From: a virus
Length of the DNA stretch: 64,000 nt
Strand: one strand, 5' to 3'
Virus record (IMG/VR): IMGVR_UViG_3300022074_000002
The notes beneath the pieces were generated by a model. The model was given only the letters and a program-made list of their open reading frames with translations. It ran no database searches and had not been told where the DNA came from. The position numbers and the translations under genes are program-made. Positions 1 to 25,921 of this stretch are shown in pieces. The first letter of the stretch is position 1; every line of letters starts with the position of its first letter.

Positions 1-2
1 TC

Positions 3-3000
3 ATAGGTGGTACTGGTGATGGTGCAACTATAGGTGCAACTATAGATGGATTTGGTGGAAGTATAACTCAAGCAGGTAGTGCATATACACCTGGCGTTTA
101 CTTAAACATTCCTGTTGTTAGTAATGGTAGTGGTACTGGTGCTACTATTGATTTCACTGTTGATCAGATATCTGGTGCAATTACAAACGGTGGTATTAAC
201 TACTATCCTGGATCATATACAAACCTCAATGTAACAGGTGGTAGTGGTACACAGATGACTGCTGATGTGGTTGTATCTTCTTTTGCTGCTACTGTTACAT
301 CTGGTTCAAACTATCCTAGTGGTATATTCAAAAGTATTCCATTAACAGGTGGTAATGGAACTGGTATGTTGGTTAACCTCAACGTACAGAATGGTGGTGT
401 ACAACCTTTTGGTGGAGTTACCAGTAGTGAATTTGTATCTGTTACATCAAACTATACTGTAGGTGATGTATTAACAGGATCTATTCCTCTTGCAGGAACT
501 CAAACATTTATAGTTAAATCTTCTTTAGGTAACAAATATTTCATTGATGGATTTTTAGGTGGAGATTTTAACCTACTAAAAGGAAAAACATATGTCTTTG
601 ATTGTAGTGATAGTACAAACAATCAACACCCAATTTTCATATCTACTACACAAGATGATGCTAACACTATTCTTGATGCTGCAGATGGTGTTACATATGA
701 ATTAGATGGATCTACTGTAACTGGTGCACAATTTCTTGCTGGTTACTTTGCTGCAGCAACAAAAGTAATAACATTTGCAGTCCCATCTAACCCAAATAAT
801 TTAATTGTATATTATGGATGTAGTGTTCACCCACTTCAAGGTGGTTCATTAACTCTTACTGATCCAAATTCACAACAGAATGGATTCCAATTAGTTGTTG
901 ATACTATTGGTGGTACAGTATCTGAATTTATTGTTAACGCACCTGGCGATGGAAGTTATGCAGTAGGTGATGTAATTAGTATTGCTGCTGCAGATTTATA
1001 TGATGTAAACGGTGCAGATGCTGCAACATTAGGTTCTGGTTTACAGATTACTCTTGGTGGTAACTTTGGTGCGATTGCTGCATTAGATCAGATATCTGAT
1101 TTTGGTAGTGGTTATACAACTGGTGATCTATTAACTCTTGCTACTGCAGTCAATAATGTTACAACATATGCTAGAGGAGAACTTTCGTTTTTAGGTGTTA
1201 CATTTAACTCTAACGCTGGTGTAACAGCAATACAATATAGTGGTATTGCAGCGGGTGGTGCTAATAATTATAATAATATTTTAGTTCAAAACTTAACTTC
1301 TGCTGGTTCTGGATTGCGTGTTAATGTCGAGGTTATATTTGCAGGAGGAAATAATTCATATAATGCTGTAACCATTGTTGCAGCGGGTCAGGGATACTTA
1401 CCAGGCGATACACTGTATATACCAGGTAATCAACTTGGTGGTGCTGCTGGTGTTCAACCAGGTTCTGGTGGTAATGACCTTGCAATTAGTGTTGATACTA
1501 TTGAGGCAGGAAGTCCACAAGTTACTGTTGCTAGTACAACAGGTGTTGAAGTTGGAGATAGTGTTGAACTAATTCAGAATATTAATAACACAGCACAAAT
1601 TCCTGCTAATGTTACTGTCGCTAGTGTTGACAGTGCAACACAGTTTACGATGTCTGCAGGACCTACACAACCAGGTCAGGCAGATATAAAAGTTGTTAAC
1701 CAAAATCAAACTTACCTAACAGTTGCAGATAGTTCTAATATCGTTGCTGGAATGGTTGTAGTAAAAGTAAGTGGTAATGGTGAAATTATTGCTGGATCTA
1801 CAGTTACACAAATTGTAGATGCTACAACTGTAGAGTTATCAATTCTACCAACCATAGCTGGTGCACTGGTTGTTAATTTTGAACCTGAGTATGGTGGTGG
1901 TAGTGGATTTGAGTATACTGTTGGAACTCTAGGTTTTGCTAGTGAAGTAACCATAGTAGATGGTGGTAATGGTTATACAATAGGAGATGTCTTAAATGTA
2001 AGTTCATTTGATCTTGTACAACCAGAAGTATATGCTGTCACTAATTTACAGGTTGATAAGATTGTATTTACAAGCACCTCTCTTCCAGCTAATACATTTA
2101 GTGTAGGAGATTTGGTTAGAGATGCTGGTGGTGGAATACTTGCAAGTAATATTACAACTTCAACAACTGTAGGTGGTGCTGCAAATCAAAACTATACTGG
2201 AGTGGCACCTAGTCAAACATCTGGAAATGGTAGTAGTGCAACGTTTGATGTTACTAGAGATGCGGTGGGTGATGTATTATCTGCAACTGTTACCACAGGA
2301 TCTGAAGGTTACTTCTATGCGGTGGGTGATACAGTTACACTACCAGGTGCATCTGTTGGTGGATCAACTCCTGCTGACAACATTACGTTATCAATTTCAG
2401 CAATTACTTCTGCTGGTACTCCAGTTAAAATTCAGAAAGTTAAGACCAATGCTAATAATAATATTTCCTATATTATTTGTGATACATTTGGTTTCCAAGA
2501 TGGGTTTACTCTTGTAAGAGATGCTGCACCAACAGTAGCATATGATATTAACACTGCTGTTACTGAATATCGTTACTTTTTAGATCTTAATGATGGTAAC
2601 GGAGCAGTAATGACTCCTTCTTGGACAGTGTATGCTGGTAACAGTTATACGTTTGATTTAAGTGATAACACAAATGGTAGTCATGTATTTGCTTTATCTC
2701 AATTCCCTGATGGTAGATGGGCACCTAGTAGAGTTGAAAATTTAAGTACAACATTAAGTGCTAATACACCAACTATTACAGTCGCTTCGACAACTGGTAT
2801 TCAAGCAGGATTTACTGTTGAGAAAGTATCTGGAGATGGTATTATTCCTGATGGTACAACTGTACTATCAGTCGTCAACGGAACCACACTTACGTTAAGT
2901 GCAAACCCAACTACTGCTGGAGCAGTTGTATTTAATTTCTTTGGTGCAACATACACAAATGGTGTAACTGTAGACGGAACAAATCATACAATTAAGATTG

Positions 3001-8600: not shown

Positions 8601-11600
8601 TATTGCATAAACAACTGGAGAACTGGAACTGGAACTCCTACAGAACCAATCTATACACCAAAATATTCTAGTCTACCAAGATACTTTGATGACACTGTAG
8701 TTACATCTACAGCTTTGTTAAATGCAGATGGTAGTTCTAATGGTAGTGGAAATGCTTGTAATGATGTAACATCTGCTATTGATACTCTATCATTCTTATG
8801 GAACGATGTTATTGCTAACAATGCTAGTGGAACATATCTAGATGCTGCATACCTAATTTCTAGAAACAAAGTTCTTATTGCAGATCAAGCATTACGTGAT
8901 ACAGAAGCATACTTCCCATTCTTAAATCTTGATGATACATCAGAAAGAAAATGTCGTAGAGATGTTAGAAAAATATTAGATGGTTTAATCAGAGACTTAG
9001 TATTAGGTGGTAACGATGGTATCTTAACTGCTGCTGAATCATACTTTACAGGAACACAATTAACTGGTGTTCAAGAAGCACAACGTGCACCAACTTTATA
9101 TGCTGTTGGAAGAGCAAAATTATATGCTATCGCAGCAATGCGTAACTGGACTGATGGTAATGTTCTTGAAGTCACACCAAGCAACGCAACATATAATTCA
9201 ACATCAGGTGAATTAACTGTTTCATTCCCTGCTCCTTTAATAGATGTTTCTATTGGAGATAGAATTGCATTCAAAGAAGAAGCACTTAATTTCTCTTGTA
9301 CATATAACGGTACAACAGCAAACCATCCTGGTCCTGCAAAAACAGATCCATCTTATGGAAAGAGTTTTAACATATCAAACCTTGTAAGTAACGGAGTTAC
9401 AACAACAATTACATGTAATGTTGGAGATGCAGGTCCTGCTGCTGGTGTTGCTCACACATATACAGGTTCTGTAACTAACGGAACAATCATAATTTATAAT
9501 CCAACACAACTATCATCACCTATTCCTAAGTTTGAAGATTGGAATATACTTCTTGATGCTACTTCAAGTGCTGCGTCTAACATATTATCTCCAACAAATG
9601 CTACTTATGAACCAGGAACTGGTTTACTAGAATTAACAGTTCCATCTGGACATAACGTATCAACATCTAATGAAGTTAGAATTGCTCCTGACTCATTAAC
9701 AATGACCTGTGCGATGGATAACAACATCACAGAGCACAAATATCCACAAGAAGGACAACCAGCATTTGGTAATAATAGACCTGTAACTGCAGTAACTGCA
9801 ACTACAATTACCGTTGATGTTGGTACAGCAGGAGCAAACTTAACATTTACTCCAACAGATGCAACATATGACCCTTCAACTGGTTTGTTGGTTCTAACTA
9901 TTGGTTCTCATAGTTTAACTGTAGGCGAAGGTGTTGTTATTGCTAGTGACTCACTCACATTCACATGTGCGATGGATGGCAACCAAAGTCAGAAAACTTA
10001 TCCTCGTGCATCTACAGATTATGCTGCTGAAAGATCTCTGCCAATTGCTGCAGTAACTGCTGAAACTATTACTGTTGACGTAGGAACTGCTGGTGCTAAC
10101 AGAACATTTACTGCTACTGATGCAACATATACACCTTCAACAGGAGTCATGGAACTTACTGTTGGTCAACATGGTTTAGGTGTTGGAAAGGGTATTGTAA
10201 TTCTTGATAACTCTCTTACATTTACATGTGCTCAAGACGGTAATGCTACAAACCATTCATATCCAAGATCCACTGACCCTGCATCAGGAACTTCTAGAAC
10301 TATCACTGCTGTAGGTGAAACACAGCATACAATTACAAATGCACCATATGATCCTGCTACAGGAATAATAACTGTAACTATTTCAAATCATAATTTCTCT
10401 AATGGTGATTACATTAAACTTGATGATGATTCATTAACTTATACTTGCACATTAGACAGTAATGCATCTAATCACACTTATCCTCGTGCTACAGATCGTG
10501 TTAGTGGACGTTGGTTGGCAATTTCTAATGTAACACAAAATACATTTGAGATTAATGTAGGTGCTAACTCAGAAGGTGGAGCACATACATTCGTCAGTGC
10601 ATCATCAAATGGTTTGAAGAGACAGACTGGAACATTGACTGTTAATGTTGGAACATCATCTAACACAACAAACCACACATTTGTAAGTGCTACTACTAAT
10701 GGTATTACACATTCTCCAACCACAACTCACACATTTGTATCTGCAGCAGCTGACGCTGTAAGTCATCAACCATCTGCTGTTCATACATTCAAGAGAATGG
10801 ATGCAAACTCTGTGTCGGTATATGCTGCAGGAGCTGCACCATTATGTGCTGGAGTTGCTACATCTATCAACACAATCATGAGTACATTGACTGATGTGTT
10901 GGATGGTACGACTTCTGCTGGTTCTACAGCAAGAACATATGGAACTCTATTTGATGCCTCACTACTCTTTACATATCCTGATAGTTTCTTATATGATGAA
11001 TTTAATAAGAGAGTATCAATTCGTGGTAACTATGATGATTATCCAATCATTGAAGCATCTCCATATACACAGAACGCATCTGTTATCTCTTTCTTAGGAG
11101 GTGGTGGTGCACTGGTTGATGGATCTAAAGTCAAACAACCCAACTGCCCATTTCCTGGTCTTGAACTAGATGGAACTGCATCCTTCCCTAATCAGGGTAA
11201 GTCGATGGTTGCATCTGCATTCACGATTGTATCTTTTGGTGGTACTGGTTATAAGGTTATTAATGATGGTTACACACAGTTGGTTTCTGTGTTCGTTATC
11301 TTCTGTCAAGATGGTGTGCTTGCTGAGTCAGGTGGTTATTGTTCTATTACTAACTCTGCTACTAACTTCGGTACATTTGCTTTAAGGGGTGTCGGATATA
11401 GAGAAGAGTGCTACACATTTGACCAAGGTATAGTCAGTAACGTATCTGCTACACCTACAGGTAGAACAATACTTACAATTAGTGGATTAGGAAGAGAACC
11501 ACTAGAGCATTATGTTGGTAAAATTGATGGGTATAGAAATACAAACGTAAACATAGAATACTTTGTTGATGTTGTTGCTGCTGTTACTGTAGGTCCTCCA

Positions 11601-17251: not shown

Positions 17252-18538
17252 ATGTCTCAGTTAACAGTTGGAACAGTTTTAACAGGTAATGCGAGTTTAA
17301 CGACGCAAGGTCTTAAGCTGCCATCTTTTACAAACTCGAATAGACCAGGATCACCAAACGTAGGTCAATTAATCTTCAATACATCTGAAGGTAAGGCACA
17401 AATTTGGAATGGATCTGATTGGGACGAAGTTGGTGGTGGTATTCCAGAACCAGCTGATGTAACTAGAGGTTCGTATCTAGTATCTGATGGTAGTAACGGT
17501 GTTTTCTGGGCGTATCCTGGTCAAACAGTTGCGTCTGCACCTTTAACAGGATTCAGATATAGAAGTTTGATAACACACGGTTATCTGGTGGCGGGGTATA
17601 AAGGATCTAATCCTTGGAGAACGGTTAATAAAACATGGCATGCAAATGATATTACTTTCTATTGTGGAGAACAATTAACTAGAGCACTTACTTACGCTGA
17701 CTGTACATGGAGTGATTACTTCGGTTATGGTCATGGTTGCATTAACGCATTCACGGGATCTTCCAACTTTACAGATTCGATCAACCTACACACAGGTATG
17801 AGACGAATGTTTGGTACTACTGGATCAAACCCAGGCGGTGGTACTTACTCTCCAACCTCACCATATGGTTGGGAAGGAGACGATCCTAGAGGAGTCATGG
17901 GATATACAACTGTTGGTGGTTGGAATATGCCAGTTAACCGAGATAGAAACTCAACTGCTACTGCACAGGTACAACAGTTTGGTTATAACTTAGGTGGAGG
18001 TAACTCTGCTGTAGGTAAACTTCACTACTCATCTGAGATCATGTATCAGGTAGGTAACTCACCATCTGGTAGTGACCACACTGCATCTTGTGGTGATGAG
18101 AATAGATCTTGGGTATCCTTCCGTGGTAGTAGATACTACGTCGATCATTCCAACGATAATTGGTCTGGTTGGTCTTCCAACATGGCACCTGACGGAGTTT
18201 GTAAACCACTTCCTTCTAAGTGGGGTCACTTCTATTGTGGTACTGGTAACAATGTTACATCACCTTGGACTAAATACAGTGGATCATCTGGAGCTGGTCT
18301 TAAGAACGGAACTAAGGTTCGTGCTTATGGTGAAGAAAATATGATGATGGGTCAAGACAAAGGATACATGATGGGACAATACGACGGACAGCAGAACAAC
18401 CATACTACTAAATGGGATTACTCTACTGACGTTGAAACAAACATGCCAGCTGCTACTAGACCAAAAGGACATTATGGAACATCATCTGGTGGTTGCTGTT
18501 CAGCATCCGCTTCTGTAACTGCTAAACGAGCACAATAA
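17252..18538 (+). CDS. Virion structural / short fibre protein (428 aa)
   Basis: N-terminal 'LKLPSFT...RP.SP.VGQLIFNT..GKAQIWNG..W' fibre-base motif shared with the giant protein; C-terminal G/Y/W-rich repeats (GY..GG/AG) suggest a beta-propeller-like head. Confidence 0.6.
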   Translation: MSQLTVGTVLTGNASLTTQGLKLPSFTNSNRPGSPNVGQLIFNTSEGKAQIWNGSDWDEVGGGIPEPADVTRGSYLVSDGSNGVFWAYPGQTVASAPLTGFRYRSLITHGYLVAGYKGSNPWRTVNKTWHANDITFYCGEQLTRALTYADCTWSDYFGYGHGCINAFTGSSNFTDSINLHTGMRRMFGTTGSNPGGGTYSPTSPYGWEGDDPRGVMGYTTVGGWNMPVNRDRNSTATAQVQQFGYNLGGGNSAVGKLHYSSEIMYQVGNSPSGSDHTASCGDENRSWVSFRGSRYYVDHSNDNWSGWSSNMAPDGVCKPLPSKWGHFYCGTGNNVTSPWTKYSGSSGAGLKNGTKVRAYGEENMMMGQDKGYMMGQYDGQQNNHTTKWDYSTDVETNMPAATRPKGHYGTSSGGCCSASASVTAKRAQ

Positions 18539-19347
18539 TGAGATACTTAATCGTCAACGAAAAAGAAATCAATCCAGAACAGTTTGTCAACATGGCAAGT
18601 GCTGGAGATACCAGACTGCACTACAGCGAAATGTTTTCGTTGATGCACTTCTCATGTGTAGAGGTCAGTGAAACAGTTTTCCAAACTATATCTAAAGAAT
18701 GGGAACACAAATACTTAGAGGTCACAAAAGCACAAGCGTATAACGGATCAAACTTCTTCTCAGAAATTAGACCATATGGTAAAGTTGCTGCATCAGTTGA
18801 TTCATCTGGTTATGCATGGACTCCTGCTAACCCAGTTTTAAAAGTTCCTATCGAACTTACAGATGCAATTAAAAAAGAAGTTATAGACTTCATGGTATAT
18901 TTTGCAAAAGAAATTATTGAAGATGAATTTAACACACGTCTTAAAAATCTTAAGAACACCACAGATCTAGAAGTAGCATCTTGGGAGATTCAAAAGCACG
19001 AAGCAAGAGAATGGTTAACGAATAAAGGACTAGGTGGTAGTAAAACTCCTTTCTTAGACTACCTATCTGCTGAAAGACATATTGACAAAGATACTCTTTC
19101 AAATAAGATACTTACAAATGCAGAAGCATGGGAAGATAAACTATCTACAATGCTAGTACAATACCAAACATTGATAAAGAAATTTGAAAATTGCACTTCT
19201 GTATGGGATATAAATATATTATATGAAGATCACATTGGTATCATGTTGCCTCAAAAGCAAGCAATTGAGATGGGCAGAACAATATCTGATACTGACTGGG
19301 ATCGTAAACCAGAGTATGAGGTAGAACCCTATGTCTTTAAATTCTGA
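18538..19347 (+). CDS. Putative tail-fibre assembly protein
   Basis: 'SWEIQKHEAREW...TPFLDYLS.ER.IDK..L..KIL.NAE.W' resembles phage fibre-assembly chaperone motifs; coupled to the upstream gene by TAATG. Confidence 0.45.
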   Translation: MRYLIVNEKEINPEQFVNMASAGDTRLHYSEMFSLMHFSCVEVSETVFQTISKEWEHKYLEVTKAQAYNGSNFFSEIRPYGKVAASVDSSGYAWTPANPVLKVPIELTDAIKKEVIDFMVYFAKEIIEDEFNTRLKNLKNTTDLEVASWEIQKHEAREWLTNKGLGGSKTPFLDYLSAERHIDKDTLSNKILTNAEAWEDKLSTMLVQYQTLIKKFENCTSVWDINILYEDHIGIMLPQKQAIEMGRTISDTDWDRKPEYEVEPYVFKF

Positions 19348-20167
19348 CGCTAACTTTTCAGATATTATTGCAGACGTTAAAAATATAATAAGTTCAGATA
19401 CAAACGAAATACATTTAGCAAAGTCATTTGTAGATGAGTTCGCACTCACCAAGAAAGACTTTGATACTTTGTCTGCTTCTATGCGATTTGATAGTGGCAT
19501 GACAGAGTATGAGTGTGAGCATTTTGTTGCTGACCCACAATTAACTCCATGGAGAAAAGTCCGTCAAGCACTGATGGAACTTGAAACTAGGTATCATGCA
19601 TACATGGAGAATAGAAATAGTCTTAGAAAGGCAGAGATTCTTAGAAAAAGATTGAGTAGGGACATGCCATTGCTTCCTGACGAACTTGATAGAGAGTTGA
19701 TGCAAATTGATATGGAAAAAAATGATTATGATATTGGTATTTGGAAAAGGAAACTCAGGCAATCTGAACTAGAGTTAAAGTATTTCTTAAATATTGTTGA
19801 CAAGTATGTTGACGACGAGCATCCTTTAGAGTATTATTGTGCTGAACAACCACATGAAATAAGAGTATATTGGATTGCTCGTATGGGCAAGCAAGCAGCA
19901 ATGGACATCATTTCTTATGGTAGAATTGGTTCTGGTAACATGACTACAATTATGGATATGCCAGAGGAAGATCAAGTAGAAACACTTGGTGTTGCTGTTA
20001 AGTATTCTGGTATGATTGGTGGTGGTATTGACAAACTAAATAAAATGATCGCACCGCAACTGCAACATCAGTTAGCACAGGAAGGTATAGTAATGCCTAA
20101 ACTGTTAGATCATAAATATAGTGGACAGGGTGAAAACCAATACAAATTACAAGAGGAAAATGGATAG
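19331..20167 (+). CDS. Hypothetical coiled-coil protein (278 aa)
   Basis: Long ORF with phage-like composition and a charged helical centre, overlapping both neighbours. Confidence 0.7.
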   Translation: MSLNSDANFSDIIADVKNIISSDTNEIHLAKSFVDEFALTKKDFDTLSASMRFDSGMTEYECEHFVADPQLTPWRKVRQALMELETRYHAYMENRNSLRKAEILRKRLSRDMPLLPDELDRELMQIDMEKNDYDIGIWKRKLRQSELELKYFLNIVDKYVDDEHPLEYYCAEQPHEIRVYWIARMGKQAAMDIISYGRIGSGNMTTIMDMPEEDQVETLGVAVKYSGMIGGGIDKLNKMIAPQLQHQLAQEGIVMPKLLDHKYSGQGENQYKLQEENG

Positions 20168-20408
20168 ATTTTTTAATCCAACAAGTAGACATCTTGATCT
20201 ATTGCCTGTAATTCATCACGCTATATGGCAAAGGTATGAATTAGGGGATACAAGTGGCGACACTATTACATACCCAACATTAAATGAAGAAAAGTTGGAA
20301 CAATTAGCAGAAGTACACAAGGGTATCTTAGTAGATAAACCTGGTGAAGAACATTTATATATGGAAGCAGTGATCGTAGATTATGGCAAGTTTCTCGCTA
20401 CCTCTTAA
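20160..20408 (+). CDS. Hypothetical protein (82 aa)
   Basis: ATG at 20160 follows an AGAGG SD-like sequence; fills the gap in a tightly packed operon. Confidence 0.6.
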   Translation: MDRFFNPTSRHLDLLPVIHHAIWQRYELGDTSGDTITYPTLNEEKLEQLAEVHKGILVDKPGEEHLYMEAVIVDYGKFLATS

Positions 20409-22065
20409 TACAAAATTACCTGAAGATTTTGTAGTAAACCAATTTATTCCTTTTCTAAAAGAACACAAGGAATATATCTATGACATCTATTTTACCTGTC
20501 GTATGCCACCCTTCACGCAAGATGCGATGGGTGACGTAATTGATGGTGACATCAGAGAGACAACTTTAAATGCTTTGTTTGTATCACAGGAGACTGGGAT
20601 ACCTTTGTCTGCAACATTTAATAATATCCAAGTTCCTCCTACACAAGAGAACTTGGATATTTTTATTGAGAATTTTAGATTCTTATATGACAATGGTGTT
20701 CGTATAGTTACCTTACCACACACAACATGGATGCTGACTGGTCAAATTCAAAAAGAATTTCCAGAACTAAAAGTAAAGAATACTATTCTTAGAGAAGTTA
20801 CTAGACCTAATGAAATAGTAAATCTTGCAAAGGCAGGGTTCTATTATATTAATCTAGATAGAGACCTTATGCGTGATAGAGATTCTCTTCTTAGAATTAA
20901 AAAAGCAAAAGAATATTGTGCTTCTATAGGTAAACCTGTTAAGATATCATTACTTTCCAATGAGTGGTGTTGGGGCGGATGTCCGATCATGCCAGAACAT
21001 TATCATTATAATATGGTAAGAGGAAAAGATGATCCACAATATTTTAATGATAGTATTAGTAGAGTATCGTGTTCTACATGGGATGAGAAAGATCCTGCTG
21101 CGTCATTAAAGGCAGCAACTATTCCTCCATGGAGAAAAGACTGGGAAGAATTTGTTGATCTTGGTATAGATGTATTCAAGATGCATGGTAGAGAAAATGC
21201 TATGCGTCTCTATGAGAGTATGACCATCATTAATAGATGGAAAACTAATGAAGAACTTTTACATCCACAGTTTAATGAATATATTGAAGACGTTTCTTTA
21301 GAAGAAAGACCTATTGATATATGGCGTGAAAAGATTAAGACTTGTAAGTTTGATTGTTGGGATTGTAATTACTGTGATTCTGTTGTTCAGTCTAGAATGA
21401 AAAAGAATGATAGACATTTTGATGATGACATTAAATTAGTATTAGAATCTATTGACAAGGCAGCAAGAAGAGAAAGTAATTTTGTAGAAGAAGGATATAA
21501 GTATGAAGGTTTGTCATCAAATATAGTAAGACATTTTCTAAACAATCTATTATCTAAACCTGATGCAATCTACATGGAACTAGGAGTTCATGCTGGTAGT
21601 ACATTCTATGCTGCTACTATGAATAGAGATGTAGAATCATTTGCTATAGATAATTATTCTGAGAAAGAGATATCACCTTTTAGAGATGAAGTAGAGGTAG
21701 AAGGATACGAAGACCCTAAGAAAACATTCTGGGCAGGACTACAACAGAAGCAATATTTTTGTGCTAAGTCAATACAAGATCTGACTCCTAGAGATATACA
21801 CAAACAACCTAATGTAATCTTCTATGACGCAGACCACGACCCACAAGTTCAGTATGATAATCTTACATTCTTAATTCCTGCACTTGCGGACAAGTTTATT
21901 CTTGTTATTGATGATGCAAACTTTATGGGCGTTGTGCAATCGTCTGAGTTCTGGGTAAAAGAACACAAACTTAATTTATTATTTGAAAGAAAAATACTAA
22001 CTAAAATTCCAGAAGATCCTAATGGTTGGTGGAATGGCATACATGTTATGGTATTACAAAAATGA
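20383..22065 (+). CDS. U32-family (Fe-S, TrhP/RlhA/UbiU-like) domain fused to a class I SAM-dependent methyltransferase
   Basis: Residues 1-290 carry NEWCWGGCP (C196, C200), C230 and GIDVFKMHGRE (cf. the U32 GVDSLKIEGR motif). A CKFDCWDCNYC cluster lies at 321-331. The C-terminus has YMELGVHAGST (motif I), IFYDADHD and LVIDDAN, Methyltransf_24-like. Confidence 0.7.
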   Translation: MASFSLPLNTKLPEDFVVNQFIPFLKEHKEYIYDIYFTCRMPPFTQDAMGDVIDGDIRETTLNALFVSQETGIPLSATFNNIQVPPTQENLDIFIENFRFLYDNGVRIVTLPHTTWMLTGQIQKEFPELKVKNTILREVTRPNEIVNLAKAGFYYINLDRDLMRDRDSLLRIKKAKEYCASIGKPVKISLLSNEWCWGGCPIMPEHYHYNMVRGKDDPQYFNDSISRVSCSTWDEKDPAASLKAATIPPWRKDWEEFVDLGIDVFKMHGRENAMRLYESMTIINRWKTNEELLHPQFNEYIEDVSLEERPIDIWREKIKTCKFDCWDCNYCDSVVQSRMKKNDRHFDDDIKLVLESIDKAARRESNFVEEGYKYEGLSSNIVRHFLNNLLSKPDAIYMELGVHAGSTFYAATMNRDVESFAIDNYSEKEISPFRDEVEVEGYEDPKKTFWAGLQQKQYFCAKSIQDLTPRDIHKQPNVIFYDADHDPQVQYDNLTFLIPALADKFILVIDDANFMGVVQSSEFWVKEHKLNLLFERKILTKIPEDPNGWWNGIHVMVLQK

Positions 22066-22628
22066 ATTCATTCAAACATCAATATATGGTAGTCCATCTT
22101 GATGATGATTTCTATCCACAATTAGAAAAAGCAATAAAACCATATCAAGATTATGAATCATGTAAAACAGATCAATGGGATGGCAAGAAATATCAGGCAC
22201 AGGATCATAAAGATAGAAGTTCAAAAGCGTGTTGGATAGACAATGATGAAGTCTATGCAATGATGGATGGTCTTGTGCATTTTGCTAATACAAAATGTGA
22301 CTGGAATTTAGATGTAAATTTTATGGAACCTCTACAACGTACAAAATATGATGTGGGTGATTTTTATGATTGGCATTGTGATGAAATGGGTTGGACAAAA
22401 GGTAAGAGACCTAATAATAGGATACGTAAAATAAGTTTTACAGTTATGTTAAATGATGATTTTGAAGGTGGTGAATTTGAAATACAGACAACAGAAAAAA
22501 ATGTGGTAGAATTAAAGAAGAAGGATGTTATAATATTTCATGCTGATACTCCACACAGAGTTAAACCAGTGACTAAAGGTGTTAGACATTCTCTTGTTGG
22601 GTGGACACAAGGACCTGCATTTAAATGA
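22062..22628 (+). CDS. 2OG-Fe(II) oxygenase (PKHD / prolyl-hydroxylase-like)
   Basis: YDWHCD (HxD), FEGGEF, PHRVKPVTKGVRHSLVGW (distal His and 2OG Arg); start at the ATGA overlap, 22062. Confidence 0.9.
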   Translation: MNSFKHQYMVVHLDDDFYPQLEKAIKPYQDYESCKTDQWDGKKYQAQDHKDRSSKACWIDNDEVYAMMDGLVHFANTKCDWNLDVNFMEPLQRTKYDVGDFYDWHCDEMGWTKGKRPNNRIRKISFTVMLNDDFEGGEFEIQTTEKNVVELKKKDVIIFHADTPHRVKPVTKGVRHSLVGWTQGPAFK

Positions 22629-23188
22629 GATTTATAAAAGAATATACATTGAGTGATCTTGGTATATGTGATCGTCTTATAGATCTATACAAAGACGCTG
22701 ACAAAAAAGATTTAACTTATGCTGGTCGTGTAGGTGGTGGTAGTGTCATGCCTGAGATAAAAAAGAGTAGAGATTTTTTTATTGAAGATGCTGCTCCACT
22801 AGGAGAACCTAATGATTATAAATTTGATTTATATCAAGACGAGTTGAATGGATTTATTGATAATTATTTAAACTCTTTGACTATTCATAATCAAGAATTT
22901 GTAATGCAAAGACTACCACAGATTCAATACTATAAACCAGGCGATGGTTTTTATACTTGGCATGTGGATGCATCAGGATCTGATGGTTGTGATAGAGCAT
23001 TCGTATACATCACATATCTAAATGATGTTCCTAATGCTGGAACTGAATTTTTTTATCAAGAGTATACTGTAGAGGCAAAGAAAGGTAACACAGTAATTTT
23101 TCCTGCTGGACTTACCCATAAACATAGAGGTGTGATATCAGAGGAACATGAGAAATATATTATAACTGGATGGCTTTGGTGGGTATGA
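22625..23188 (+). CDS. 2OG-Fe(II) oxygenase
   Basis: FYTWHVD, YLNDV..GTEF, FPAGLTHKHRG, KYIITGW. Confidence 0.9.
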   Translation: MRFIKEYTLSDLGICDRLIDLYKDADKKDLTYAGRVGGGSVMPEIKKSRDFFIEDAAPLGEPNDYKFDLYQDELNGFIDNYLNSLTIHNQEFVMQRLPQIQYYKPGDGFYTWHVDASGSDGCDRAFVYITYLNDVPNAGTEFFYQEYTVEAKKGNTVIFPAGLTHKHRGVISEEHEKYIITGWLWWV

Positions 23189-23715
23189 AAATTATAAAAA
23201 ACTTTTTACCTAAACAATTACTTAATGCATGTGTAGACGACTTTAGATCTAAGTTGAATACTGATTGTTGGTCATCTAGTAACTTTGCATGGAAACCATT
23301 TTTAAGACAGGGTATTCATGGATCAACTATTGCCACTGATATTCCTAAAGTATTCAGCGATGAGATATCAACATATCTAAAACCACATGCACCTGAGTAT
23401 AAGGAGTTGACATGTAGATATAATGTATGGCAACCAGGTGCTGGTATTGGAGTACACTCAGACACTCATCATTTGTTTGGTGCAACAATATATCTGAATG
23501 AACATTGGCATCCAAATGCTGGTGGTTGGTTTGTATGGATGGATCATGCTGATCTAAATTTAGATGAAGATCAAAGTAAACCTGATGTATACAGAGCAGT
23601 TTTACCAGAACAAAATATGCTAGTATTAAATGACTGTAGTGAGAGTCATCTAGTAACTACTGTTGGACATGATGCACCTGAGTATAGATACACAATTCAA
23701 ATATGGGGTGATTGA
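23185..23715 (+). CDS. 2OG-Fe(II) oxygenase (prolyl-hydroxylase-like)
   Basis: IGVHSD, TIYLNEHW...GGWF, SHLVTTV, RYTIQIW; start at the ATGA overlap, 23185. Confidence 0.85.
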   Translation: MKIIKNFLPKQLLNACVDDFRSKLNTDCWSSSNFAWKPFLRQGIHGSTIATDIPKVFSDEISTYLKPHAPEYKELTCRYNVWQPGAGIGVHSDTHHLFGATIYLNEHWHPNAGGWFVWMDHADLNLDEDQSKPDVYRAVLPEQNMLVLNDCSESHLVTTVGHDAPEYRYTIQIWGD

Positions 23716-24296
23716 TGAATAAACCTCACGTCATATACAATGTATTATCTGAAGAGGAGAGAATACCATTGTGGGATTACTTTAATCGTAGATCACCATC
23801 TATGAACTCACTTGCTACATGGACATTTAATAATGCATCTTATGGTAAAGGAGATCCAGTATCATGGCAGCATCCATTGAGAACTGATTTGATATTTACT
23901 AAGTGTGCTACTACAGTTAGATTGAAGATAATGAAATTTCTTAGAAGAGATATCAAACTCTGTAAGATACATGCTAATGGACAGACAGCAGGACAGAATA
24001 CAATGTTTCATAAAGATTGGGAAGAGCATAATGTCTGGACATTTATATACTTCAATCAACCACATTGGGATCAGGAATGGGGCGGTGAGTTTGTATGTCA
24101 AACACCAGATGACGAGTATCATCATACACCATATGTACCTAATACAGGTGCATTGATTCCTTCTAATTGGTTACACAAAGGACAACCACCTAATACATTA
24201 ATAGGTAATGAGATTAGAACTACTATTGCTTTCTCATTTTGTGATCCTGAGATTCACGATAATATAATTGCACAGAATACAAGAAAATGGTATTAG
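23715..24296 (+). CDS. 2OG-Fe(II) oxygenase
   Basis: MFHKD, W..EWGGEF, WLHKGQPP, RTTIAF; TGATG coupling to the upstream gene. Confidence 0.85.
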   Translation: MNKPHVIYNVLSEEERIPLWDYFNRRSPSMNSLATWTFNNASYGKGDPVSWQHPLRTDLIFTKCATTVRLKIMKFLRRDIKLCKIHANGQTAGQNTMFHKDWEEHNVWTFIYFNQPHWDQEWGGEFVCQTPDDEYHHTPYVPNTGALIPSNWLHKGQPPNTLIGNEIRTTIAFSFCDPEIHDNIIAQNTRKWY

Positions 24297-24802
24297 GAAT
24301 TAGACAATATCCAGTAGACATTGATGCAGATAAACTTGTAGAGTTTATTGATACTAATATTGAAAACAATTCTCTCACTAAAAACATAGCTCATGTATCT
24401 AAACTTACCTTTACTAATGGCAAAGATGACTTCTTAGAGTATGATGAACCTATTATTAAAAAATTAAAATGGACATTTCATGATGCTTGCTCTAGATATT
24501 GGGGTATGGATATATTTGATTTCCAAATAAATTCATGGGTGTATGTAGATTGGAATGATAATCCAATAGAACCATATATGCATTCACACAATCCAAACAA
24601 TCCTTTCACATTATCTGGTATAATGTATATAAAACTAGGTGAGTCTGGAACTACTATGTTTCCTATGCCAAAGAGAGATCCATATTTTTTACCTAAGAAA
24701 GAATTAACTTGGTTTATCTTTCCATCTAACTTACCACACATGCCTGGCAAAGGTATTCAAAATGAAAAACGATATAGTTTAAGTGCAGATTTATACGCAT
24801 GA
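24287..24802 (+). CDS. Putative 2OG-Fe(II) oxygenase (TIGR02466-like)
   Basis: YMHSH, LSGIMYI, IFPSNLPH, RYSLSADL. Confidence 0.75.
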   Translation: MVLGIRQYPVDIDADKLVEFIDTNIENNSLTKNIAHVSKLTFTNGKDDFLEYDEPIIKKLKWTFHDACSRYWGMDIFDFQINSWVYVDWNDNPIEPYMHSHNPNNPFTLSGIMYIKLGESGTTMFPMPKRDPYFLPKKELTWFIFPSNLPHMPGKGIQNEKRYSLSADLYA

Positions 24803-25395
24803 TGTACAGTCAAAATAGTTTCTCTTTTCTATCAGAGAAAATGCCACAAAATTTATATCAAGAATTACTTTCTTACACACAGAGAAGAAGGAAGGAAGAG
24901 ACTTGGAATTATAATCATAAACTTGCTGGTGCATTAGAACAACAGTCAAGTCTATCTGATTGGAGTCCACAGTTTGAAAAATATGTTGTTAGACTATCTA
25001 CAGAGTTATGGTCACAGGTGTATCAAACATGCCCGTGGGATTTTCAAGAAGCAAGAGACGTAACACCTTTTATAAGATTGAGAAACCTGTGGGTAAATTA
25101 CCAGCAACAGTATGAATACAATCCTATACATACACACACTGGTATTGTGAGTTTTGTAATCTTTACAGACATACCATATGGTTCTGAAGAAAGAGAATCA
25201 CATAATAGTAATGGTGCGTTTCAATTAGAAGCAGATGTATTACCAGTAGATAAAACTTGGAATGGTGTAATACTTATGTTTCCATCTACAACTAAGCATG
25301 CTGTATATCCTTTCAAGTCTACACAGAAAGAACGGGTAACAGTATCTGGTAACTTAATATGGAATGTGGAGGGTGTAGATGAAGAACATTATTAA
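24799..25395 (+). CDS. Putative 2OG-Fe(II) oxygenase (TIGR02466-like)
   Basis: YNPIHTH.G..SFVIF, MFPSTTKHAVYPF, RVTVSGN. Confidence 0.8.
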   Translation: MMYSQNSFSFLSEKMPQNLYQELLSYTQRRRKEETWNYNHKLAGALEQQSSLSDWSPQFEKYVVRLSTELWSQVYQTCPWDFQEARDVTPFIRLRNLWVNYQQQYEYNPIHTHTGIVSFVIFTDIPYGSEERESHNSNGAFQLEADVLPVDKTWNGVILMFPSTTKHAVYPFKSTQKERVTVSGNLIWNVEGVDEEHY

Positions 25396-25921
25396 GGACA
25401 ACTGTATTAATCCTAACTATCAGAATCTTTTAGAGAGCACTATGAGATATGATACAGACTTTAGGTGGGTGTATCATGACAATCTTAGTGAAGATGGTGA
25501 GAGTCAGTTAGTAGGTTTCTCTCATATGTTTATATTGAATGGTAATTCTACAAGTAAATACTCTGGATTGTTTCTTCCATTAGTATTTGAAGCATGTTAT
25601 AATACAGGTATATCAATATCTAAAGTCATACGTGGTAGATGTTTTTTACAGACGCCAGGTGTGAGAACAAAAGAGTATGATTCTATGCATGTTGACTTAC
25701 CAGATCAACATTTGGTATGTCTATACTATGCATCAGACAGTGATGGTGACACGTATTTTAGTGAAAGAATGTACGGAGAACCGCTTGCTGAATACCCTAT
25801 AAATAGTACAGTATCTCCTGTAAAAGGTAGATGCGTTTTCTTTGATGGTCTGCGATATCATTCAAGTAGCGTACCCACAAAGAAACCTAGATTCGTAATA
25901 AACTTTAATTTTTTACCTTGA
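25379..25921 (+). CDS. Putative 2OG-Fe(II) oxygenase
   Basis: SMHVD, LYY..DSDGDTYF, FFDGLRYHSSS.P, RFVINFNF. Confidence 0.8.
   Translation: MKNIIKDNCINPNYQNLLESTMRYDTDFRWVYHDNLSEDGESQLVGFSHMFILNGNSTSKYSGLFLPLVFEACYNTGISISKVIRGRCFLQTPGVRTKEYDSMHVDLPDQHLVCLYYASDSDGDTYFSERMYGEPLAEYPINSTVSPVKGRCVFFDGLRYHSSSVPTKKPRFVINFNFLP

Follow-up and report, generated by a model that had tools for sequence, protein, structure and literature searches.

The gene considered here lies in a 64,000-nucleotide stretch of viral DNA (hereafter, the window), and its setting is that of a marine T4-like cyanophage gene. The ORF runs open for 560 amino acids on the plus strand, beginning at the first start codon past a stop, and has the limits given in a preliminary description of this DNA (Table 1). 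It stands last in a conserved cassette, GC351-GC352-GC353-GC354, which is placed behind tail-fibre genes.

Table 1. The U32-like/O-methyltransferase gene, its predicted parts and its neighbors, in window coordinates.
Feature	Position	Strand	Basis or identifier
GC351, fibre-like and rich in glycine, 428 aa (phage records call it "sericin-like"); opens the cassette	17252..18538	+	
GC352, 269 aa, conserved cassette member	18538..19347	+	phrog_1604
GC353, 278 aa, helical, outside known families; obligate companion gene	19331..20167	+	phrog_1409
Whole ORF: U32-like, putative Fe-S domain plus O-methyltransferase, 560 aa	20383..22065	+	T4-GC 354; phrog_1458
U32-like TIM barrel, aa 1-291	20383..21255	+	AlphaFold2 model, 5d88 match, profile matches to trhP/rlhA
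Barrel cysteines C196-x3-C200-x29-C230, after strand beta6	20968..21072	+	Invariant 58/58
K266-M-H-G269-R270 motif	21178..21192	+	HMMER-aligned to U32 K-I-E-G-R
C-terminal helical extension with C321-x3-C325-x2-C328-x2-C331 (nt 21343-21375)	21256..21417	+	Invariant 58/58; pLDDT ~90
Predicted cation-dependent class I O-methyltransferase (COMT/CCoAOMT/TrmR/MycF-type), aa 346-560	21418..22062	+	Model, fold, conservation
Motif I, E399-G405	21577-21597	+	Conservation
Acidic residues D423, D482; D510-D511-x-N513	Last at 21910-21921	+	Conservation
Seven 2OG-Fe(II) oxygenase genes in tandem, most with PF13640 (prolyl-hydroxylase type)	22026..25921	+	Directly downstream

The U32-like gene is found just downstream of GC353 in 80 of 80 viral loci, and in the Ralstonia jumbo phage RP31 the U32-like ORF is immediately preceded by a GC353 homologue. 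In S-SSM2 the gene is 6 kb from GC351-353, yet GC353 still co-occurs. Cultured phages that carry the cassette include P-SSM4, P-HM2, S-CAM4, and Syn33. A complex prediction for the N-terminal domain with GC353 scored 0.00, counting neither for nor against binding; an Atlas feature search with GC353 gave no usable match, and four longer family members inspected as a Rosetta-stone test (P0132, P0246, P0260, and P0149) carry no fused GC353 or GC352 domain. The Atlas cluster of GC351 has PF26696 (PTL_trimer) in 17% of its members. Distant subfamilies are preceded by Gly_rich_2 plus DUF4376 or Phage_tail_APC chaperone genes, neighbors also include prolyl-hydroxylase-type oxygenases and halogenase-like genes, and bacterial members sit beside PqqD, radical-SAM/SPASM genes, and a small ORF. 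The number of 2OG-Fe(II) oxygenase genes varies between relatives. We claim no promoter, because promoter-like sites do not exceed shuffle expectation: the late-promoter motif TATAAATA occurs six times in the window (7.1 expected), and sigma-70-like and terminator-like sites there are at or below that level.

The family comprises 2056 database proteins, is found in 126 sequenced phages, and is annotated as hypothetical throughout. T4-GC 354 is likewise only "hypothetical" in Sullivan et al. 2010 and is missing from their virion proteomics tables. Searches of the literature found no publication describing a U32-like/O-methyltransferase fusion gene or PSSM4_035, and nothing on U32 proteins in RiPP clusters or on DUF401 function. 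The gene's DNA has no megablast match among phage records, from which near relatives may be missing, and a search of viral contigs with P0160 as sole query found nothing. The two domains occur both as fusions (49 copies) and as split gene pairs (18), the latter with stop/start overlaps of -3 to -16 nt. The U32-like family is a large, unrecognised, mainly viral branch with a distinct seven-cysteine signature.

Kinship of the N-terminal domain to U32 proteins, proposed earlier from motifs, is now supported by three independent lines that agree: the predicted fold, a reciprocal profile search, and Atlas clusters that bridge to PF01136. The AlphaFold2 model of residues 1-345 (pLDDT 93.6) has as its best Foldseek match 5d88, which is Mk0906 of Methanopyrus kandleri and the sole solved U32 catalytic domain (TM by target 0.71, versus at most 0.54 for others). 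VIA also ranks 5d88 first (Z 16.7, rmsd 3.2 Å, 225/247 residues, model range 1..276), with the runner-up at Z 13.2 and rmsd 5.2, and a wide Foldseek-independent search of 48,161 chains returned it at the top, at Z 16.7 versus 12.5 for other TIM barrels. By fold the domain is a U32-type TIM barrel, 5d88 standing 3.5-4 Z units above every other barrel. Mk0906 is the best structural match, yet is only 10% identical; relative to it, the phage domain is extended at its C-terminus by ~55 residues that include four cysteines, and it is fused to a methyltransferase. Among viral clusters of the Atlas, those matching the domain at TM 0.90-0.94 include one in which 20% of members carry PF01136, and a true U32 cluster matches at TM 0.75 across 306 residues.

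Sequence identity to U32 proteins is ~10%, and the homology detectable at this level is weak yet specific and collinear. A family profile searched against the whole Escherichia coli chromosome found only trhP (E 1.3e-4) and rlhA (E 0.08); scores against UbiU and UbiV were below significance. An hhalign comparison with a profile made of only the four E. coli paralogues (UbiU, UbiV, TrhP, and RlhA) gave E 1.8e-4 and a probability of 48%, in register, and the HMMER alignment is collinear with U32 proteins, K-x-x-G-R motif included. PF01136 itself does not match the ORF protein at E up to 1, matches one of 58 relatives (at E 0.033), and is absent from the nearest virus record compared, a 13-kb fragment. 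The N-terminal domain has no Pfam match, the protein has none in NCBIfam, a Pfam scan of 20 distant relatives found no family in any, and sequence searches of the PDB with the single protein and with profiles of each domain found nothing meaningful.

The motifs on which the original proposal rested are all present, each at the residue given for it: E194-W-C196-W-G-G-C200-P, C230, and V264-F-K266-M-H-G269-R270-E in the barrel; C321-x3-C325-x2-C328-x2-C331 after it; and E399-L-G401-V-H-A-G405, F480-Y-D482-A-D-H, and D510-D511-A-N513 in the methyltransferase. In a 58-sequence alignment of N-terminal domain relatives (identity down to 23%), the sole invariant columns are C196, C200, C230, C321, C325, C328, and C331. 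Conservation is at least 90% at N80, K132, T134, D159, R160, R164, E194, E205, H206, K266, G269, and R270, and at least 97% for K266-x-x-G269-R270, which aligns to the late-strand KIEGR of TrhP, RlhA, and UbiU. Conservation of C39 and C179 is limited to close cyanophage relatives and does not hold family-wide. The canonical U32 cluster motif is C-x6-C-x15-C-x3/4-C, with variants in UbiU and UbiV (10.1101/587956); this protein lacks that pattern and has C196-x3-C200-x29-C230 in the equivalent region instead. In UbiU/UbiV the [4Fe-4S] cluster sits on cysteines after beta6 of the U32 barrel, ligand positions are variable, and UbiV has a C-x3-C pair (10.1101/587956, PMC10990095). Strand alignment suggests that the barrel cysteines are positionally equivalent to the U32 motif. 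The four-cysteine module is lineage-specific and is absent from E. coli U32 proteins and from the L021 paralogs. Together, the absence of PF01136, the C-x3-C-x29-C spacing, and this module agree with the earlier suggestion of a divergent subfamily. As the only invariant columns, the seven cysteines are most likely the ligands of one or two [4Fe-4S] clusters. The radical SAM superfamily was considered and rejected: there is no PF04055 match, C321/C325/C328 lie near the domain's C-terminus, and no radical-SAM structure is among the top matches.

For the C-terminal domain the model (pLDDT 95.6) bears out the O-methyltransferase reading, with a TrmR/COMT-class Rossmann fold. In VIA it matches TomG, bacterial COMTs, TrmR (5zw3), and MycF at Z 15-16 (rmsd 2.6-3.0 Å, 162-173 residues), and the best matches are metal-dependent O-methyltransferases throughout. 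The preliminary description had singled out TrmR for comparison; TrmR is indeed among the tied top matches (Z 15.9), but the fold cannot distinguish it from the others. By sequence, Methyltransf_24 scores E 1.5e-4, which is under its threshold (23 bits against a cut-off of 26.3), a PF13578 match is precomputed for many orthologues, and solved O-methyltransferases give no match to the domain. Across 177 distinct full-length fusions (39%-98% identity), conservation is 98% or higher at E399, G401, G405, D423, D482, D510, D511, and N513; these residues would make up motif I (E-x-G-x-x-x-G) and a candidate for the Asp/Asp/Asn metal triad that this class (Methyltransf_3/24, COG4122) carries after beta4 and beta5. 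Some homologues are named "predicted O-methyltransferase YrrM" by JGI.

Comparable pairs of activities exist elsewhere. In the Bacillus yrrMNO operon, genes for U32-type factors stand together with an O-methyltransferase gene. TrhP (E. coli YegQ; B. subtilis TrhP1/TrhP2 = YrrN/YrrO) and TrmR (YrrM) convert tRNA U34 to ho5U and then mo5U (background on TrhP in PMC6599085). The phage protein resembles this system in joining a U32-type, presumably Fe-S factor to a COMT-fold metal-dependent O-methyltransferase, and TrhP is its best E. coli profile match. TrhP and TrmR are separate proteins, whereas the phage domains are fused or adjacent; the cysteine pattern is other than that of TrhP, with the four-cysteine module added, and the gene occupies a late fibre-linked setting with obligate partners GC351-353. 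In the UbiU/UbiV system (with UbiT and UbiG), O2-independent, prephenate-dependent hydroxylation of the ubiquinone ring is followed by O-methylation (10.1101/587956, PMC10990095). UbiU/V is a heterodimer with one four-cysteine cluster in each subunit, whereas the phage protein is one chain with seven invariant cysteines; UbiG, unlike the phage C-terminal domain, is outside the COMT class, and no counterpart of the SCP2/UbiT-like partner was found for the phage gene. RlhA (YdcP; 23S rRNA ho5C2501), the second E. coli profile match, is collinear including K-x-x-G-R, but has 653 aa, further domains, the canonical cysteine motif, and no methyltransferase partner.

We propose, with confidence just short of even, that the ORF encodes a two-step ring-tailoring enzyme that would hydroxylate and then O-methylate its substrate. 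Residues 1-345, as a very divergent U32-superfamily TIM barrel, would most likely carry out O2-independent hydroxylation of an aromatic or heteroaromatic C-H, with prephenate giving the oxygen, the role suggested for it in UbiU/UbiV, TrhP, and RlhA; residues 346-560 would then methylate the new hydroxyl with SAM, leaving a methoxy group (+30 Da). U32 enzymes have been proposed to draw their oxygen from prephenate (PMC10990095), and genes for prephenate supply occur near some family members. At locus L108 a CM_2 chorismate mutase gene (E 1.5e-14) ends 13 nt before a stand-alone member, and L150 and L184 each have, no more than 4 kb from a fused member, a CM_2/DAHP-synthase fusion and a shikimate-DH-like gene. 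Chorismate mutase adjoins family members in two independent phage lineages only; the window's own lineage lacks chorismate mutase and DUF401, and the window has no shikimate-pathway gene. The placement of chorismate mutase fits prephenate supply; alongside DAHP synthase, it gives independent support for prephenate chemistry and suggests that these phages raise prephenate supply. A bacterial homologue has a phenolic-type (Methyltransf_2) O-methyltransferase two genes away, with SBP_bac_5 alongside. The points counted for coupling of the domains are the fused and split forms, this independent O-methyltransferase family, and the adjoining chorismate mutase, and on these the hydroxylate-then-O-methylate sequence seems plausible. 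Counted against it are the missing PF01136 match, the replaced canonical motif, the separation in S-SSM2, the restriction of chorismate mutase to two lineages, and its absence, with that of DUF401, from the window's lineage.

The gene's context favours a virion protein, peptide, or small aromatic as target at least as much as tRNA, rRNA, or DNA. Our tentative first choice is the side chain of an aromatic residue in a virion or fibre-tip protein or in a peptide, for which we count the conserved GC351-354 cassette, the tail chaperone-type neighbors, the bacterial PqqD/radical-SAM settings, and the oxygenase- and halogenase-like neighbors. Second comes a free aromatic metabolite, for instance an acid derived from chorismate or a quinone precursor, which we hold to be rather unlikely: it would be hydroxylated and O-methylated as by UbiU/V plus UbiG (10.1101/587956), DUF401 would move substrate or product, and the fibre-side position would be an accessory insertion site. 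A DUF401/CitMHS-type membrane protein gene lies within 4 kb in 44 of 49 metagenome loci, and in RP31 such a gene comes straight after the U32-like one. These genes and the shikimate-pathway genes of L150 and L184 suit a small-molecule substrate no less well than a protein; the SBP_bac_5 and Methyltransf_2 genes beside the bacterial member point the same way, as does the fact that COMT-class enzymes and flavin halogenases mostly take small aromatic compounds. Against this reading, the window lacks DUF401 and shikimate-pathway genes across its 64 kb, very distant phages keep the tight cassette, which is translationally coupled and includes a fibre-like protein, and the radical-SAM/PqqD neighborhoods suggest peptides.

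Modification of a nucleic acid in the manner of TrhP and TrmR (ho5U/ho5C to mo5U/mo5C in host or phage tRNA, rRNA, or phage DNA) ranks third and appears improbable. The E. coli proteins that the profile finds are RNA hydroxylation factors, the YrrM names given to some homologues and the logic of yrrMNO agree with it, and TrmR is among the top structural matches, but shares that rank with O-methyltransferases acting on small molecules and sugars. The searches found neither an RNA- or DNA-binding domain nor nucleotide-metabolism neighbors, the gene is among late fibre-linked genes rather than those of replication or translation, and the tRNA pathway has nothing corresponding to the obligate partners GC351-353. 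Somewhat more improbable still is that the protein is not a hydroxylase, with U32 ancestry only and cysteines serving zinc, structure, or other redox or radical chemistry, or that it works as a peptidase, the original annotation of U32 proteins, or in fibre maturation. The low identity and altered cluster motif would allow this, C321-x3-C325-x2-C328 has radical-SAM spacing, one Atlas cluster joins the N-domain fold with a radical-SAM domain, and no U32 protein has yet shown direct hydroxylase activity in a reconstituted in vitro system (PMC10990095). However, the protein has no Radical_SAM Pfam match, and the cysteine triad follows the barrel, not beta1. Recurrent pairing with two O-methyltransferase families and chorismate mutase also argues against this reading, because a hydroxylating step predicts such partners.

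U32 proteins are emerging as O2-independent hydroxylases that use prephenate, and most subfamilies are without an assigned substrate. The U32-like domain is often fused to the presumed consumer of its product; a single polypeptide should therefore yield the +30 Da readout. A fibre-tip target would imply a new post-translational chemistry of virions in highly abundant ocean viruses. In its most specific, and to us unlikely, form, the proposal is of a first protein-directed U32 enzyme that places methoxy groups, by prephenate-dependent chemistry, on aromatics of the receptor-binding fibre tip (e.g., Tyr to DOPA to 3-methoxy-Tyr), with GC352 and GC353 helping and oxygenases and halogenases acting alongside; this would amount to a swappable "fibre-tailoring" chemistry altering host recognition in abundant marine cyanophages. 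Against a protein target, no characterised U32 enzyme is known to have a protein substrate. A further point against the two-step proposal is that the host evolves O2, to which Fe-S enzymes are sensitive; expressed UbiUV nevertheless functions in air (PMC10470549).

GC354 combines a U32-like N-domain (aa 1-345) with an O-methyltransferase C-domain (aa 346-560) and is open for 560 aa, counted from the first possible start codon, in AT-rich cyanomyovirus DNA (34-42% G+C). Sullivan et al. 2010 catalogued it as T4-GC 354, labeled only as hypothetical, in 5/16 cyanophage genomes; it is missing from their virion proteomics tables. Its motifs, each found at the residue positions named in the preliminary description, are far beyond chance by their conservation in relatives. 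Across 58 aligned N-domain relatives, down to 23% identity, only C196, C200, C230, C321, C325, C328, and C331 are invariant, and about a dozen polar residues (e.g., E194, E205, H206, K266, G269, and R270) are at least 90% conserved; conservation of C39 and C179 is confined to close cyanophage relatives. Conservation reaches 98% or more for E399, G401, G405, D423, D482, D510, D511, and N513 of the methyltransferase, judged from 177 distinct full-length fusions of 39-98% identity.

Pfam has no match for aa 1-345 and NCBIfam none for GC354, and the PHROGs matches are to two function-unknown families, phrog_1458 (the fusion) and phrog_36869 (the N-domain by itself). No Pfam family is seen in distant N-domain relatives (0/20), and PF01136, the family of the 'peptidase U32' Fe-S proteins, matches 1/58 relatives (E 0.033). 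Exhaustive searching yielded 295 cluster representatives of the N-domain, many being 330-450 aa long and stand-alone, and this family set served as the AlphaFold2 input alignment. The resulting model (pLDDT 93.6, pTM 0.92) is an alternating β/α barrel with a helical C-terminal extension, and among solved structures it is closest to 5d88, the catalytic domain of the U32 protein Mk0906 (Foldseek TM by target 0.71, versus at most 0.54 for other barrels; VIA Z 16.7, rmsd 3.2 Å, 225/247 residues, versus Z 13.2 and rmsd 5.2 Å for the next fold). Comparison with 48,161 chains by a method independent of Foldseek gave the same ranking (16.7 for 5d88 versus 12.5). Searched against the whole E. coli K-12 chromosome in six frames, the family profile matched only trhP (E 1.3e-4) and rlhA (E 0.08), out of four U32 genes present there. 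The alignment is collinear from β3 to β6 and then places V-D-V-F-K-x-x-G-R onto the U32 K-I-E-G-R; hhalign against the four E. coli U32 paralogues (E 1.8e-4) has the same register. The ESM Atlas holds viral clusters of near-identical fold (TM 0.90-0.94), one with PF01136 in 20% of its members and another named 'Peptidase U32 (Fragment)', and a genuine Bacillota U32 cluster aligns to the N-domain with TM 0.75 over 306 residues. Structure match, reciprocal profile search, collinear alignment, and ESM Atlas relatives thus tie the N-domain to U32, as had been proposed from the motifs, and we conclude that it is a remote superfamily member lying outside the current Pfam model.

In known U32 proteins a [4Fe-4S] cluster is held by C-x6-C-x15-C-x3/4-C, of which UbiU and UbiV carry variants (10.1101/587956). 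The equivalent region after β6 of the N-domain has instead C-x3-C-x29-C, a spacing that, with the lack of a PF01136 match, bears out the earlier view of a divergent U32. A second module, C-x3-C-x2-C-x2-C, sits on the C-terminal extension. Seven cysteines of ligand grade point to two clusters, or to a single one that the extension completes. Two divergent barrel paralogues downstream of the main copy in one locus (L021) keep E-C-x3-C-P and K-L-x-G-R-E, lack the C-terminal four-Cys module, and have extra cysteines in the barrel loop, a pattern that fits a ligand-supplying role for that module. Tandem arrays of the U32-like enzyme exist behind a fiber chaperone gene in this locus. A radical SAM identity was considered for C-x3-C-x2-C, where the spacing is similar, but its position, the absent PF04055 match, and the fold matches speak against it.

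The C-domain model (pLDDT 95.6) matches cation-dependent O-methyltransferases. Pfam Methyltransf_24 falls slightly below cut-off on GC354, many orthologues do carry the match, and some are labeled 'O-methyltransferase YrrM' by JGI. The O-methyltransferase reading made initially held for the fold, which does not single out TrmR; B. subtilis TrmR (5zw3, Z 15.9) is tied with TomG, bacterial and mammalian COMT, MycF, SpnH, and NovP (Z 14.5-16.2, rmsd 2.6-3.1 Å). The modeled fold supports methylation of a hydroxyl adjoining another oxygen that chelates the metal. Catechols, ho5U, and sugar diols all have such a pair, and the fold does not discriminate among them.

The fusion is present in 126/50,697 phage records, nearly all Synechococcus or Prochlorococcus myoviruses, and is annotated 'hypothetical' without exception; 2056 database proteins are of this type. 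A gene block of GC351 (fiber-like, glycine-rich), GC352, GC353, and GC354 recurs in P-SSM4, P-HM2, P-RSM1, S-CAM4, and the window, and in S-SSM2 both GC353 and GC354 are present though 6 kb apart. A U32-like gene lies directly downstream of GC353 in 80/80 viral contigs retrieved via GC353 (44-95% identity), as a methyltransferase fusion in 77 and interrupted by the contig end in 3; most of these contigs run on into one to seven 2OG oxygenase genes. Because the Ralstonia jumbo phage RP31 has a GC353 homologue immediately upstream of a stand-alone U32-like gene (ORF136), the pair is much older than the fusion. The survey of fused versus split genes proposed earlier found 49 fused copies in 80 metagenome loci versus 18 loci with separate, translationally coupled genes (overlapping by 3-16 nt, and by 52 nt in a single outlier). 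Since fused and coupled split forms both occur, the two domains constitute one functional unit.

Prephenate is the product of chorismate mutase, and shikimate-pathway auxiliary genes are uncommon in phages. In L108, whose HNH, Mtd_N/PTR fiber, and DUF4376 chaperone genes make it phage-like, a chorismate mutase of 90 aa (full-length CM_2 match, E 1.5e-14) stops 13 nt ahead of a stand-alone family member. A fused copy in L150, and a stand-alone copy in its relative L184, are each followed within 4 kb by a gene resembling shikimate dehydrogenase and by one that joins chorismate mutase to DAHP synthase (CM_2 E 4.8e-17, DAHP_synth_1 E 2e-50). L150 and L184 are phage-like metagenome contigs that also encode a DUF401 membrane protein. 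The nearby chorismate mutase, although seen in just two independent lineages, is the most specific support found for a U32-like mechanism. Prephenate has been shown to donate the oxygen for UbiU/V and is the proposed donor for every U32 enzyme (PMC10990095). No gene of this kind occurs in the window.

Going beyond what fold, homology, conservation, and synteny show, we infer as somewhat probable that GC354 carries out prephenate-dependent hydroxylation followed by O-methylation. Fe-S-assisted chemistry in the barrel would hydroxylate an aromatic or heteroaromatic C-H, and the fused metal-dependent methyltransferase would then cap the new hydroxyl, a net gain of 30 Da. That the host is oxygenic and the enzyme O2-sensitive need not defeat this reading, since UbiUV functions in air when expressed, still without using O2 (PMC10470549). 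The closest systems, TrhP/TrmR, UbiU/V with UbiG, RlhA, and the Mk0906 structure, resemble GC354 in outline; unlike known U32 proteins, it has no match to the PF01136 profile and departs from the canonical Cys motif, and it brings with it the four-Cys module, a fused partner domain, and companion genes that are obligate. Our literature search found no published description of GC354, in keeping with the earlier statement that no characterized phage enzyme is known to have this architecture. GC354 gives compact access to U32 chemistry in a single polypeptide, and it is a hint that some of the ocean's very abundant phages have a new function, either in virion tailoring or in metabolism.

As to the target, we slightly, and tentatively, favor an aromatic residue, either in a protein of the virion or fiber tip or in a peptide. 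In three distant phage subfamilies (~25-28% identity) the gene comes directly after those for a Gly_rich_2 protein and a fiber-assembly chaperone (DUF4376 or Phage_tail_APC). Bacterial or plasmid-like members share cassettes with PqqD, a pair of radical-SAM/SPASM enzymes, and a Tyr-rich ORF of 47 aa; the RiPP-like example in L012 also has a 312-aa P-loop protein and an S24 peptidase-like gene, and its 47-aa ORF ends in a Tyr- and Cys-rich tail. Five more loci have radical-SAM neighbors, and an Acidobacteriota cluster in the ESM Atlas fuses the N-domain fold to a radical-SAM domain. The fiber-chaperone and PqqD/radical-SAM neighborhoods may be a clue to a protein or peptide target.

A small chorismate-derived or quinone-like compound is a less likely target, at which another neighbor may hint: a DUF401/CitMHS-type membrane protein gene lies within 4 kb in 44/49 metagenome loci with enough sequence and directly downstream of the U32-like gene in RP31. 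This frequent cassette member, seen in L001 and some 50 further loci, is absent from the window. A nucleic-acid base, as in ho5U, would be compatible with the C-domain fold and seems improbable. Other neighbors bear on the chemistry. Further ring-tailoring genes are a tryptophan-halogenase-like gene after the U32-like enzyme in at least nine loci and, in the window, prolyl-hydroxylase-type oxygenases downstream of GC354; a Methyltransf_2 O-methyltransferase (a family other than the C-domain's) lies two genes downstream of the bacterial homologue in L113.

Coordinates of features in the window and in other loci carrying family members
Feature	Sequence	Position	Strand
GC351	window	17252-18538	+
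GC352	window	18538-19347	+
GC353	window	19331-20167	+
95-aa ORF, GTG start	window	20121-20408	+
GC354	window	20383-22065	+
2OG-Fe(II) oxygenase genes	window	22026-23188	
T4-type late promoter boxes, TATAAATA	window	16067, 19209, 25798	
Deposited CDS start	S-CAM4 (L002)	6136	
Deposited CDS start	P-SSM4 (L026)	7124	
Deposited CDS start	P-RSM1 (L024)	7124	
'denV DNA endonuclease V'	P-SSM4 (L026)	8686-9195	
'tail fiber protein'	P-RSM1 (L024)	8695-9195	
DUF401, shikimate-dehydrogenase-like, and chorismate-mutase/DAHP-synthase genes	L150	2559-6329	
DUF401, shikimate-dehydrogenase-like, and chorismate-mutase/DAHP-synthase genes	L184	4459-8195	
Barrel paralogues	L021	3615-4583, 5555-6436	
RiPP-like cassette	L012	72-5719	
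DUF401/CitMHS-type gene	L001	7016-8056	

Late promoter boxes lie near the cassette, and TATAAATA is not enriched in the window (6 observed versus 7.1 expected from shuffling). The deposited CDSs of S-CAM4, P-SSM4, and P-RSM1 start ~45-48 codons downstream of the conserved N-terminus, and phrog_1458 likewise begins at residue 49. Such models lose barrel strands β1-β2, conserved even in RP31, which may be one reason that the U32-like fold was overlooked. The 216-nt gap between GC353 and GC354 is filled by the 95-aa ORF, which overlaps both and has no Pfam match. Most related viral loci have a homologue at the same position, and the ORF may be a genuine small cassette gene. The gene after GC354 is labeled differently in P-SSM4 and P-RSM1, and the window genes at the same position are clear 2OG-Fe(II) oxygenases that cross-match PHROGs named 'DNA endonuclease (V)'; the denV and tail fiber labels look like propagated misannotation.
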